A DNA stretch of 64,000 nt from Verrucomicrobiota bacterium (GTDB taxonomy: Bacteria; Verrucomicrobiota; Verrucomicrobiia; Limisphaerales; AAA164-E04), in the NCBI GenBank assembly GCA_047947115.1, contig CP170459.1, forward strand, positions 1,760,001-1,824,000, read 5' to 3'. Below the pieces are notes generated by a model, which saw nothing but the letters and a program-made list of their open reading frames with translations, was not told where the DNA came from and did no database searches. This document shows, piece by piece, positions 1,921-6,174 of this stretch. The translations under genes and the position numbers were made by a program. Numbering within the stretch: position 1 is the stretch's first letter; each line of letters starts with the position of its first letter.

Positions 1921-2745
1921 TCATGGAATCAGAAGTCGGTAAAAGACAGGTTCAGGCCCTGTGATCCATGGTTCCGAAATGGTTGTTGGTTCGTCGCCAA
2001 GCGTGATGGTTTGAATTGTTTCCCAGGACACACCATCGCGAGAAACCTGCACACTGATCTCTGAACCTGCCGTTCCTTCTGCTTGAAAGGTGAATGCTCC
2101 GTCGACCAGAGCAGGAGATGAAAGAGTCGGTGGTATCGCTGGCACTGACGCTGCTTCGATTGAATCGATGGCATTCCGGATGGTATTGATGCTTGGCCGG
2201 ATGGACTCGATATGCAGGATTTCCCATTGCTGGTGGGAGGGTGAATGATTTACGCCATTGATCACCACGAAATCCGATGCGCTGGTCCCTTCACCTCGAT
2301 TTGGAGGGAAGAACTGGTGTAGCGCCGTGTGAGCCCCGTCGTCCAGGACCAGGTCGAGGCCTGCCCGATCGGCAAAAAACAAGGAACTTCCTGTGGGCGC
2401 TCCACGATCATCTTTTTCCAGACCAATGACCTGAACGGGGATGCCGTGGGCATTGCCGCCACGTTCTTCGTAATACTGATGAATATCTTTCTCAACGACC
2501 GCTGAGTTGGCTCGGCAGGTGCCTCACCAGTAGAAAAAGAAATCCAGCAGGATGATGGACCCTTCGGCTTCGCTCAGGTTAAACGGTTCATCCGTTCTGA
2601 TATTCGTGAGTTCAAACAAGTCGGCTACTTCTCCGACACTCCTGCGAACGGATTGGGCTTGCAGGCCCGTAGCTGAGATACACACCACTGTTGCGATCGT
2701 GATTGCCAGCCATTTACCCAAAGGTTTTTTTGGTGAAATGTTCAT
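1921..2745 (-). CDS. Predicted selenoprotein: secreted TlpA/peroxiredoxin-like thioredoxin-fold protein with UxxC motif, 274 aa; TGA at 2526-2524 read as Sec
   Basis: ORFs 2524..2745 and 1921..2382 are in frame. Read-through gives IILLDFFFYW-U-GTCRANSAVVEKDIHQYYEERGGNAHGIPVQVIGL, collinear with neighbour IIVLDFFAYW-C-APCARTSPILENEIASYYASQEGNPHGIPVELIAV. N-terminal signal peptide present. Confidence 0.85.
2491..2506 (-). promoter_or_regulatory. Putative bacterial SECIS hairpin
   Basis: Minus strand CTCAGC-GGTC-GTTGAG: 6-bp stem (one G-U pair) and a GGUC loop starting 23 nt after the UGA. Resembles the GGUC-containing apical loop of the E. coli fdhF SECIS. Confidence 0.65.
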
Positions 2746-2765: not shown

Positions 2766-4412
2766 TTAAAACTTCACGTCAAATGCCGCCTGAAACAAGC
2801 CCCAATTTCTGTTTTGATAAATATCTTCGAAAAAAGGCGCGGCAATGTTTGCTTCTTCATATCGTGTCCAGTAAGGGCCAGCACTGACTCGCACACTGGA
2901 TTTTTCACCAACCCATCGCAAGCCCAGTCCCAAATGATAGCTCTTCAGTCCGGGAGGTGCATTGGAGGAAGGTAACGAGTTTTGTATCTCACCCGTGTCC
3001 TCGTAGAAGCGTCCGAAAAAACTCAGAAGCCATGATTCGCTCAAATCATGTTCCAGGGTCAGCCCGGTAAACCAGGAATTGAAACTCGGGTTTTCAGTTG
3101 CGGTAGCTGTTTGCCATCTCATGACCCAGGTTTCAGAAAGTGCCGCGTTGAGAGATCCTTGAAGGGACCAGCGCAGCTGTCGATCGGTCGTGTCTGTCAG
3201 TTGAAGCTCAAGCAGGGAACGCAGTCGCTTGGTCAGGACGTTTTCGGTTGCGATGCGATAAATGATGGAATCGATGCGGTCGCGTCCCAGGATGGTGACT
3301 CGTTCGAATTCCGCGCTGGGGGCGATATGATCACGGTAGAATCCTGCACCGGATTCAAGGTAACCTGATCCCGGCAGGTATTCCCACCGGGCCTGGGTGG
3401 ATAGTTGATAACCACGGGGATCGATTTCAGGATATCCGGCAAAAATGGGGAGGTTGCCGATCTGTTTGTAATACTCATGCAGCCATAGTGCGCGGTAGCT
3501 TTGGAATCCTTCGTAGTAACCTCCCTGCAGACGTAGTGTGAAATCGTCATTGATTTGCTGTGAAGCTCGTAGCTGACCGAGTATGCGTTCATTCCGAACA
3601 TTCATGGAGGTGAAAAACGGATCCGGCGAGCGCATGTCCAAATCGAATGTTTGAATCATGAGCCCCGCATCCCATTCGGTACGGCCGTAGGTATGACCGT
3701 ATCTCATATTCCATTGTGTCAGTTGATAATCATCCGTCAGAAGCGCTTCGCCGGCTGTTTCGAATGTGCGTTCTGTCAGCAGGTTTCTTTTCGAGTCAAA
3801 TTCGGGATCATTGGGTGTTTCTGCAGATGGTGTCGCGTCTGCATGTGGTTTTTCACCGATGGCATCAATCACGGATCTCAGTTGTTCGACGCCTTCAAAT
3901 CCGGCGTGTTGATAACGAATGACGAAACCGGACTCGGAACTTGTGCCGTCCAGCACCACAATCAATGGGATCCCCTGACTCTTGAATTGTTGCAGCAAAT
4001 GCCCTTCCAGGTCCTGAATCACGTGGGAAAGACCTGCACGACGGATGAACATGTCCGTCCGTCGAGGATTGGCGGACTCGACATTCACTGCGATCAATTC
4101 CACCGGGATCCCATGAGGGTTGCCTTCTTGGGAGGCGTAATAGGAGGCGATTTCGTTTTCCAGAATTGGGGACGTGCGGGCGCAAGGGGCGCACCAATAG
4201 GCAAAGAAATCCAGCACGATGATTTTCTCCTGATGTTGTTCAAAGGAAAATGTTTTCCCCGGGGAAGGAAGGAGCTCGGGTAAGTTGAGGTTGGAGAAAT
4301 CAAGGGCCACCTTCTGGCGAAGGCGGCTACTGGGGGTTGCGCTGTGGACGGGCCCGGTTGATAGCAAACTTACCAGGCACATTACGACCAAAATGAATCT
4401 TAATGGGCGCAT
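2766..4412 (-). CDS. TlpA-like thioredoxin (CAPC) fused to a DUF3570-like outer-membrane beta-barrel
   Basis: Signal peptide, LDFFAYWCAPC, Pro-rich linker, amphipathic beta-strand region and terminal ...QAAFDVKF (C-terminal Phe signature). Confidence 0.75.
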   Translation of the reverse strand: MRPLRFILVVMCLVSLLSTGPVHSATPSSRLRQKVALDFSNLNLPELLPSPGKTFSFEQHQEKIIVLDFFAYWCAPCARTSPILENEIASYYASQEGNPHGIPVELIAVNVESANPRRTDMFIRRAGLSHVIQDLEGHLLQQFKSQGIPLIVVLDGTSSESGFVIRYQHAGFEGVEQLRSVIDAIGEKPHADATPSAETPNDPEFDSKRNLLTERTFETAGEALLTDDYQLTQWNMRYGHTYGRTEWDAGLMIQTFDLDMRSPDPFFTSMNVRNERILGQLRASQQINDDFTLRLQGGYYEGFQSYRALWLHEYYKQIGNLPIFAGYPEIDPRGYQLSTQARWEYLPGSGYLESGAGFYRDHIAPSAEFERVTILGRDRIDSIIYRIATENVLTKRLRSLLELQLTDTTDRQLRWSLQGSLNAALSETWVMRWQTATATENPSFNSWFTGLTLEHDLSESWLLSFFGRFYEDTGEIQNSLPSSNAPPGLKSYHLGLGLRWVGEKSSVRVSAGPYWTRYEEANIAAPFFEDIYQNRNWGLFQAAFDVKF

Positions 4413-4646
4413 GTAGGGTGTTTACAGCATTATTGGCACGCCGTGCAACCAGCAGCTTGAGCTCCGCCTGAACCGGCCGTGCCGGGTTCGATCTGGGTGA
4501 GCACGGTGGATTGATAGGCGAATACCGGTGAATCGGAAAAGGTCATATTGTGCTTGGAAACAAGACGTTGATCCTGTAAAGGGACCGCCTTGCATCCTGA
4601 AAGGAAACCCATGGCGATCAATAACGTGATACCTGTCCAACTTTTT

Positions 4647-5994
4647 GGTTCTTCGACAAAAACAATGGAATTGAGCATTTGGAACTATCGTGAGATGATG
4701 GCTCCATGAATATTGAGAAGACCATACATGGATTGCTGGGACTAGATGAGTGTTGGGAAGTTCGAGGCGTTGACTACGATTCTGAGACGGAAAAGTTTTT
4801 CATGGTTATTACTGAAACTGACAAACTCTGGGAGAAACAAGTTTGTCCCCATCAGACCTGCAAATCGTCTGGGATTACCTGTTACGATCACACCGAAACA
4901 AGGTCTTGGCGACATATGGATGTATTTGGAAAACGATCTGAAATTCTCTGCAATGTGCCTCGCGGCAAATGCCCATCTTGTCACCGAACCTATCGGGTTA
5001 AAGTCCCCTGGGAGGGTAAGGGAAAACATTTTACTCAAGCTTTTGAAGGATTTGCATTGGCGTTGATGAGGGAGATGCCAGTTAGTAAAGCATCAGGACT
5101 GATTGGAGAGTGTGATCAACGCATGTGGCGCATTCTTTTTGCCCATGTCGACGAAGCTTATTCAAAGTTGGATATGAGTGAAGTGGTTTGGATCGGTGCG
5201 GACGAATTGTCTGCACGCAAAGGGCATGATTACCTGACGGTGTTTGCTGATTTGATGGAGAAGCGAGTCATTTTTGCCACCGAGGGCAAAGACGCTGAAA
5301 CATTCCAACGCTTTGCAGATGCGTTATATGCGCACAACGGACATCCAAAAGCGATCACTCAAGTTGCCATCGATATGAGTCCGGCCTATCAAAAGGGAGT
5401 AAGGGAGAATCTAGGCAACGCAGAGATTGTATTCGACAAGTATCATGCTGTGGCCATGGTCAATGACGCAGTCGATAAAGTGCGCAAAGCCGAAGCAAAT
5501 CAAGGAGACAAGGATTCCAAAAAGGAGCTCAAAGCAAGTCGTTGGATATTTCGTAAAAATCCCTCCAATCTAACCAAGAGTCAAACCCAGCAGCTAGAGG
5601 AATTGGATTTGAAGAATTTAGTAACCGGAATCGCCTGCCAGATGCGATTAAATTTCCAACAAGTCTATCGCAGTCGCAATGAGGTTACAGCGCGAAAAAA
5701 CATGGTCAAATGGATAGGATGGGTAAAACGAAGGGCGAAAAATTCAGGGGACTTGTTGGAACCAATGATCAAGGTGGCAAACAGTATTGAACGTCACTTG
5801 GAAGGTATACTTGCTCATTGGAAAAAGAAACTGACCACAGCGTTCATGGAAGGATTGAATAGCGTTTTCAGCGCGGTCAAGCGGAAGGCCAGAGGTTTTC
5901 GCTCATCCGTATACATGACCACTATGCTTTACTTTGTAGCCGGCAAACTCAGAATCCCGGCTTAATTTAATTCCACTGGAATTGTCGAAGAACC
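4647..5994 (+). mobile_element. Complete ISL3-family insertion sequence
   Basis: Terminal IRs GGTTCTTCGACAA (13 bp perfect, imperfect to ~26 bp). 8-bp direct repeat AACTTTTT at 4639-4646 and 5995-6002. Confidence 0.95.
4706..5965 (+). CDS. ISL3-family transposase
   Basis: N-terminal Zn-finger (CPHQTC...CPSC), IGADE, AIDMSPAY, FDKYH and EGLNS...KRKARGFR motifs. Confidence 0.95.
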   Translation: MNIEKTIHGLLGLDECWEVRGVDYDSETEKFFMVITETDKLWEKQVCPHQTCKSSGITCYDHTETRSWRHMDVFGKRSEILCNVPRGKCPSCHRTYRVKVPWEGKGKHFTQAFEGFALALMREMPVSKASGLIGECDQRMWRILFAHVDEAYSKLDMSEVVWIGADELSARKGHDYLTVFADLMEKRVIFATEGKDAETFQRFADALYAHNGHPKAITQVAIDMSPAYQKGVRENLGNAEIVFDKYHAVAMVNDAVDKVRKAEANQGDKDSKKELKASRWIFRKNPSNLTKSQTQQLEELDLKNLVTGIACQMRLNFQQVYRSRNEVTARKNMVKWIGWVKRRAKNSGDLLEPMIKVANSIERHLEGILAHWKKKLTTAFMEGLNSVFSAVKRKARGFRSSVYMTTMLYFVAGKLRIPA

Positions 5995-6174
5995 AACTTT
6001 TTCTTATCCAATTGGTTTTCATTGTTTTGATTTAAGCCCGAAATCGTTTAGGAGCTGAGCCGACTCCTTCCAGAGCATGCCAACATGATCTTATTCCCAA
6101 TTATTTTCAAATATTCCAATAAAAGCAAGATAGGCATGGGCAAACCATTGCTTACCTGGTTCGATTACGCTAGG

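Follow-up and report, generated by a model that had tools for sequence, protein, structure and literature searches.

A candidate exported UxxC selenoprotein in a three-gene envelope cassette of a Verrucomicrobiota bacterium

The window that we analysed is a stretch of 64,000 nucleotides from a Verrucomicrobiota genome. Near its beginning, three genes lie on the same strand with gaps of 20 and 17 nt: a gene with an in-frame TGA that very likely encodes a selenoprotein, a 548-aa gene and a small lipoprotein gene (Table 1). On the opposite strand, positions 2-1909 encode a large lamin-tail/Fn3-associated protein, convergent with the selenoprotein gene across a gap of 11 nt. Its product ends in QYFRLSISVSE, resembling the tail family described below, and is absent from the matches of the tail profile.

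Table 1. Features of the locus in window coordinates
Feature	Position	Strand	Basis or detail
Predicted selenoprotein gene	1921..2745	-	274 codons + stop; TlpA/ResA-like domain with UxxC
In-frame TGA, codon 74, inferred selenocysteine; partner Cys77	2524..2526	-	context FFFYW-U-GTC
Predicted SECIS hairpin: 6-bp stem, GGUC loop at 2500-2497, 23 nt after UGA	2491..2506	-	
Likely cleaved signal peptide, ~residues 1-30; cleavage site judged by eye	2656..2745	-	hydropathy
Thioredoxin-fold domain, ~residues 37-198	2152..2637	-	model, fold search, profile matches
Ser157-Asp158, column where other relatives carry Pro (inferred cis-proline position)	2272..2277	-	alignment
C-terminal all-beta tail domain, ~68 aa, ends FYRLLIP	1924..2127	-	model, genome profile search
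548-aa gene: N-terminal TlpA-like domain (WCAPC) fused to predicted 16-strand outer-membrane beta-barrel (2769-3776), terminal Phe	2766..4412	-	
Small lipoprotein gene body: lipobox-like SGC, Gly-rich tail, terminal CxxC	4430..4646	-	called ORF 4430-4678 starts inside IS
ISL3 element, transposase 4706-5965, in first codons of lipoprotein gene	4647..5994	+	8-bp target duplication 4639-4646 / 5995-6002
Native start and first codons of lipoprotein gene, severed by IS	6003..6022	-	comparison with L070; joint 4636-5993 in 4/4 runs

The first-pass annotation, which gave no strand, had proposed that two separately called open reading frames (ORFs) are one frame broken only by TGA. This is correct for the minus strand, where positions 2745-1921 form a single frame of 274 codons and a final TGA, and codon 74 is the sole internal TGA. 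The plus-strand reading of the same interval was ruled out, as it contains 8 TGA codons and another stop. Calling with table 11 gives two ORFs over the frame, 2524-2745 (73 aa) and 1921-2382 (153 aa). The TGA was also correctly placed at the first Cys of the redox motif. Splitting by automated pipelines, likewise anticipated, can be seen in the databases, where six representatives of the selenocysteine (Sec) clade are C-terminal fragments starting past the TGA. Contigs of two other sequencing runs (X16 and X18) span the TGA codon with identical letters, all their listed differences being elsewhere, which argues against an assembly error. Contigs of the RNA runs cover 24-27 of the 30 bins into which the 20 kb examined was divided, a coverage too general to indicate transcription of the locus. 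A promoter scan at the locus gave 0 sites, and terminators were at chance level. Judged from sequence, it is very likely that the interval is one gene whose internal UGA is decoded as Sec.

The genome (6.08 Mb, one contig, 95.8% complete) encodes the machinery that this decoding requires. A genome search for the Sec genes, a check proposed in the first-pass annotation, found selA (462 bits), selB (302), selD (398) and the selC product, tRNA-Sec (61.9), all above cut-off. The genome's selD gene itself bears a TGA. Among the 14 genomes with TGA copies of the selenoprotein gene, selA and selD were above cut-off in 13; one genome that is 85% complete (G019) has the TGA gene and neither a selA nor a selD match. 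Both genomes with a Cys copy retain the Sec machinery. Within the family, selD differs between genera: in two of them the matches carry a TGA in frames of ~360-400 codons, and in a third they are TGA-free, with frames of 758-876 codons.

A stem-loop with a GGUC loop 23 nt past the UGA had been noted before, and it is present as CUCAGC-GGUC-GUUGAG at 2506-2491, with a spacing from UGA to loop of exactly 23 nt. The geometry matches the bacterial SECIS (bSECIS) consensus, which has a loop of 3-9 nt, a stem of 4-16 pairs, G at the start of the loop and a spacing of 16-37 nt, and which comes with a limit of -7.5 kcal/mol (section 5 in the available part of PMC13188914). The hairpin alone folds at -5.6 to -6.7 kcal/mol and misses this limit, which is reached only with flanks: the UGA plus 36-57 nt folds at -10.7 to -11.4 kcal/mol. 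The folding energy of the hairpin is not above chance (z -0.24 to -1.60), and we discarded it as proof of a SECIS. The loose bSECIS pattern is also present after 240 of the 1543 TGA codons that end ordinary long ORFs. A version with a GGU loop, chosen after the hairpins had been seen, follows 5 of the 1543.

The hairpin stands above chance by its conservation, that is, by pairing and synonymous constraint, and not by energy. Over 17 sequences, 101 of 102 pair cells are paired, as against 30-54% in slid controls, and two of the six pairs have compensatory changes on both sides. Covariation was 0.284, compared with 0.141 in shuffled alignments; as the sequences are related by descent, the counts from shuffling cannot be taken as probabilities. 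RNAalifold found the helix of the hairpin and no other. Of the 134 six-codon windows in the region compared, the one at codons +6 to +11 has the highest synonymous identity (0.87 versus 0.41 elsewhere). One of the two Cys copies (L051) has a loop changed to GGTT and has lost the outer pair; the other (L026) retains a perfect hairpin. GGU-type loops also occur 17-26 nt downstream of the TGA in four other read-through candidates of the genome.

Searching 60 relatives, we found 19 close copies including that of the window, in 15 genomes that all belong to the same family. At the redox position, 17 have TGA and two have Cys (TGC), which is the alternation that the first-pass annotation had suggested looking for. 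The pattern it had named as contrary evidence, with Cys in all close homologues and no conserved hairpin, was not observed. Coding constraint is seen on both sides of the UGA, as had also been proposed for checking: dN/dS is 0.04-0.19 upstream, and 0.00, 0.28, 0.20 and 0.20 downstream of the hairpin in four of seven pairs, the other three being saturated. Machinery, Sec/Cys alternation, SECIS covariation and purifying selection before and after the UGA thus support the selenoprotein assignment.

We aligned 123 domains, of which 101 are Cys rows, and built a careful tree from 52 rows picked by hand: all 20 Sec rows, both Cys rows of the clade and 30 others. This tree is rooted at its midpoint, its bootstrap is not fully settled, and long branches lead to L040 and L058. 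All 19 copies group in a single clade (100/99, branch 1.0), with both Cys copies nested inside. Three further Sec rows (L040, L058 and L187) sit among Cys rows and have different hairpins, pointing to separate Cys-to-Sec gains in distant members of the family. The tree needs six Cys/Sec changes, four of them forced by starred branches, with two Sec rows on long branches and a midpoint root. Read in this way, Sec appears to have been acquired at the base of a single clade that is limited to the family, with about two reversions to Cys, and this clade lost the active-site proline. Two second Sec copies differ strongly in their C-termini. One (L054:1191-7367) is a frame of 2058 codons, and the other (L052:4792-5955) has a long Pro-Glu repeat linker ahead of the tail.

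The AlphaFold2 model of the selenoprotein (pLDDT 86) has a helix at residues 10-25, then a core with the thioredoxin fold and, at 207-272, an all-beta domain. The core shows an N-terminal hairpin and a strand-helix insertion, with UxxC at helix 1. The best fold matches are ResA, DsbE and DipZ (Foldseek E 1e-9, target TM 0.67-0.80), ahead of BCP/AhpE, and profiles match solved ResA/DsbE structures. All matches to curated families are below cut-off, the best being 19 bits in Pfam (cut-off 26) and 25 bits in NCBIfam (cut-off 170). The N-terminus has a basic start and a hydrophobic stretch at 12-27, without a lipobox. By hydropathy, which is the evidence behind the signal peptide claimed earlier, it is likely to be a cleaved signal peptide.

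The active site of the clade departs from that of its relatives. In the column just before strand 158-163, which we placed from alignment and secondary structure, Ser157 is present in each of the 19 clade rows, while 103 of the 104 others have Pro; Asp158, directly after it, is invariant in the clade. Among 150 representatives, the same column has 141 Pro, seven Ser (all from the Sec clade) and two Thr (both in CxxC proteins). The distant Sec row L058 has Thr there, and two other Sec rows keep Pro. Cys77 is retained in 19/19 clade rows. According to the available part of PMC2757866, the cis-proline of the thioredoxin fold is more conserved than CxxC and may help to bind peptide substrates and to keep metals from binding; peroxiredoxins have Arg in its place. 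The apparent loss of this proline argues against a classical protein-disulfide reductase.

The C-terminal tail, described in the first-pass annotation as sorting-like, proved to be a domain common to many proteins of the genome. A tail profile, iterated once, matched 41 ORFs with a median of 637 aa, and 37 of the 45 matches end within 15 aa of the C-terminus. Pfam and NCBIfam gave no match on the tail domain. Its occurrence on 41 ORFs, mostly at the C-terminus, fits a predicted sorting domain.

The gene directly upstream of the selenoprotein gene (4412-2766) contains the segments FFAYW-C-APC and YY..GNPHGIPV, and its product aligns with the selenoprotein at 31% identity over 181 aa (BLASTP, E 8e-18). 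It had been described as an adjacent Cys paralogue. The homologous segment with Cys is indeed there, but the gene is really a TlpA-barrel fusion of 548 aa whose domain belongs elsewhere in the tree: barrel-fused TlpA domains, this one among them, form a separate clade (100/100). The upstream neighbour is therefore an old paralogue and not the parent. Since its domain falls in another clade and is absent from some cassettes, the true Cys orthologues are the last genes of the cassette in other Verrucomicrobiota. The C-terminal 336 aa are modelled as a barrel of 16 strands (pLDDT 94) ending in Phe, for which Foldseek gave only generic barrels (FadL, OmpG, TM ~0.5) and no close relative. The barrel has no conserved Cys, and 44 of 57 rows are Cys-free. 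The genome holds one barrel of this cassette family.

Among 301 genomes of the order, 49 have the lipoprotein, whose two terminal Cys are invariant in 57 rows. In the assembly, an ISL3 element, of which the genome has 10 near-full copies, parts the cassette from its native start, and the end of the element provides an in-frame ATG at 4678. The empty site occurs in a related genome (G001) and in contigs of 4/4 runs.

A family pattern retrieved 74 loci, of which 54 match all three cassette profiles and 61 match that of the barrel. Four of these loci duplicate other loci examined, and in two the sole thioredoxin domain seen is the one fused to the barrel. The pattern demanded Trp-Cys, so Sec forms are under-counted among the 74 loci. 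The order is lipoprotein, barrel, last gene. According to their record titles, the loci are nearly all from Verrucomicrobiota, including the cultured Pelagicoccus, and nearly all have Cys. The product of the last gene extends ~180 to 1400 aa past the domain start, with varied C-terminal parts. Clade members in two genomes (G011 and G014) and second copies in two (G014 and G018) have no barrel or lipoprotein within the 10-15 kb examined, and in G013 and G015 the barrel comes without a TlpA domain. Such solitary Sec copies and TlpA-free barrels indicate that the coupling of the cassette is not obligatory. A sample of 401 genomes of the phylum gave four profile matches at 1e-20; six candidates were scored per genome, so this is not a measure of range. 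A DsbD-type gene is present elsewhere in the genome.

We think it likely that the last gene encodes an exported TlpA/ResA-type oxidoreductase with Sec, which would act at the outer end of an envelope redox cassette of three genes. Almost certainly, SelB would bind the GGUC hairpin 23 nt downstream of the UGA and insert Sec74. The signal peptide would, with high probability, take the protein across the inner membrane, and there is an even chance that the C-terminal tail would route it to or beyond the outer membrane. Sec74 would probably be the attacking residue and Cys77 the resolving one, such that an oxidised substrate is reduced in the envelope or at the surface.

How the enzyme would be re-reduced is a more tentative matter. 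Gene context and anatomy suggest a path, which we consider doubtful, from a DsbD-type membrane protein to the periplasmic TlpA domain, then to the lipoprotein CxxC and finally to the selenoenzyme. A barrel without conserved Cys means that any thiol path through it must come from a partner, for which the lipoprotein tail is a candidate; its terminal CxxC, on a flexible Gly-rich tail, would reach through the barrel. We infer such a thiol relay through the barrel only tentatively. The broadest version of the idea, which is rather improbable, is a thiol wire across the outer membrane of Verrucomicrobiota, running from the periplasmic TlpA domain by way of the lipoprotein CxxC through the 16-strand barrel to a surface-sorted enzyme. 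The version of the marine/estuarine family would then be a selenoenzyme with a proline-less site and new chemistry.

Two alternatives dispute the Sec codon itself. If the TGA were a true stop, whether in a pseudogene, between two genes or through an assembly error, the two ORFs of table 11 and the chance-level energy of the hairpin would be expected, and the insertion might have left the cassette of this strain silent. We regard this as highly improbable, given that the TGA is kept in 17 homologues down to ~45% identity and always at the redox Cys column, that purifying selection downstream comes with a synonymous peak at the hairpin, and that independent runs carry the same letters. The probability is smaller still, and practically negligible, that UGA is read as Trp or Cys under a changed genetic code, as has been reported for some Verrucomicrobiota; the available part of PMC13462651 names the phylum among those with UGA-to-Trp. 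However, TGA is the commonest stop in this genome and ends 1543 of the 3065 ORFs of >=300 aa, and hence does not serve as a sense codon genome-wide, and ORFs of this size called with table 11 span 0.83 of the genome. A code with UGA as sense was ruled out on these two grounds. Moreover, tRNA-Trp has the CCA anticodon only, the sole tRNA with a UCA anticodon is tRNA-Sec, and the codon aligns with Cys, not Trp.

The other alternatives accept an exported selenoprotein and concern its function. It might not be a classical disulfide reductase, its remodelled site serving instead as a peroxidase on small oxidants or as a soft-metal binder through Se and S. This would account for Ser157-Asp158 in place of Pro throughout the clade, for the clade-specific Glu110, Lys111 and Arg150, and for the Thr of the distant Sec row, and it would agree with the suggested roles of the proline and its replacement in peroxiredoxins. 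Nevertheless, we think it rather unlikely: Cys77 is kept throughout the clade, ResA/DsbE folds rank ahead of BCP/AhpE, two other Sec rows keep Pro and two CxxC representatives have Thr. In addition, the clade lost the proline in one event, so that its link to Sec is not statistical, and the column comes from alignment and secondary structure rather than superposition. We are more sceptical again of a reading in which the barrel is a Slam-like export or assembly pore for the product of the last gene, with the lipoprotein and TlpA domain keeping the active site of the cargo reduced and no lasting relay. A fixed order of lipoprotein, barrel and cargo, cargo C-termini that differ greatly in length, and a barrel without conserved Cys are all compatible with it, and a Slam-family cluster is among the barrel's language-model neighbours (0.94). 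However, only 161 of 256 features are common to the barrel and that cluster, a match that serves as a lead, and no Slam family appears in the Pfam matches of 57 rows. The tail occurs on 41 ORFs against one barrel of the family in the genome, which fits a separate, general route. An exported, Sec-containing member of the TlpA/ResA type at the end of the cassette is the reading that we prefer.

We noticed at least these further read-through candidates in the genome (L075, L076, L077, L078, L079 and L010): a Trx7/PDZ protein (NF041199 above cut-off), two peroxiredoxin-like proteins with W-U-PFC, a PrdB/GrdB-like protein with U-PMC, a deiodinase-like protein with C-LT-U, and selD. Two more genes (L074:583-4344, minus strand, and L098) have an in-frame TGA at DL-U-S and a hairpin ~17 nt downstream. 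They encode large TlpA and TPR proteins, which we take to be FG-GAP/ASPIC-UnbV-like. The DL-U-S TGA is at the same column in 29/29 loci (28 genes), in 16 of 61 genomes, and the table of PMC13188914, in its available part, has no row for this type. In another genome (G022, contig C19, L094), one of these TGA-bearing propeller genes has selD and a fragment of selA no more than 3 kb away. The genome-wide TGA scan is a lower bound, having missed selD and the second ASPIC copy.

To our knowledge, little is known of thiol-based delivery of reducing power beyond the outer membrane. A compact cassette with Cys versions in cultured organisms (the Pelagicoccus records) makes such delivery testable. The clade also offers a natural experiment, in which a gain of Sec from Cys goes with the loss of the most conserved proline of the fold, Cys reversions occur in genomes that keep the Sec machinery, and the same family has separate Sec gains. 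For annotation, the analysis restores a gene cut in two by callers in at least 14 genomes, and it adds an unmodelled selenoprotein subfamily in a phylum with 0 occurrences in the available text of the 2026 catalogue.

Among known systems, the cassette is most readily compared with the clusters of DUF3570, DUF4266, thioredoxin-like proteins and ApbE (PMC8238504 and bioRxiv 2023.06.07.544157, each in its available part). As in those clusters, a small secreted Cys-tailed protein accompanies a large partner and a thioredoxin-like protein. DUF4266 has no match in the window's genome, and 16 of 57 lipoproteins match it below threshold (E up to 1, best 1.3e-4). However, profile alignment shows no relation between the cassette barrel and 24 DUF3570 proteins (hhalign probability 1.8%); DUF3570 has no match in the window's genome, and one of 57 barrel rows matches it at E 0.015. 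The cassette lipoprotein has a tail CxxC, not CxC. The [ST]GA[ST] motif of flavinylation clusters is absent in 56/57 barrels. The apbE matches of the genome are at 1.11, 3.76, 4.70 and 5.50 Mb, with the window at 1.76 Mb and so no apbE nearby. Lacking alignment, motif and a nearby apbE, membership of the barrel in such clusters was rejected; by these comparisons, the cassette works like a DUF3570-type cluster at most and is not a member.

Within a coverage of mostly open-access main texts, we found no published description of the subfamily, tail, proline loss or cassette; the supplements of PMC8238504 and of selenoprotein surveys may include such genes. None of the table rows in the available part of PMC13188914 names the tail domain, the cassette or a proline loss, and it is by these table descriptions that the protein is set apart. 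The protein also differs from the catalogued UxxC TlpA/redoxin selenoproteins in that all its Pfam and NCBIfam matches are below cut-off. From ResA, DsbE and TlpA it differs in having Sec in place of the first Cys, Ser where these have the conserved Pro, a likely cleaved signal instead of a membrane anchor, an extra C-terminal beta domain and 13-21% identity. Its hairpin, unlike the E. coli fdhF-type element and the consensus bSECIS, is without a lower stem joining the UGA, and is by itself weaker than the -7.5 kcal/mol limit.

The modelled fold, the W-x-x-x-C active site and the likely export signal are shared with the extracytoplasmic oxidoreductases ResA, DsbE and TlpA (PDB 1su9, 3gl3, 2ls5). 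With its 4-nt loop, 6-bp stem, 23-nt spacing and a G in the first two loop positions, the hairpin resembles fdhF-type SelB/SECIS decoding and the consensus bSECIS (PMC13188914, available part). Table 1 of that paper, in the part available, lists UxxC selenoproteins of the cd02966, PF08534 and PF00578 kinds, and the predicted protein shares with them the thioredoxin fold, Sec as the first residue of UxxC and a SECIS inside the ORF. As far as that table goes, a UxxC TlpA/redoxin selenoprotein is an already known kind.
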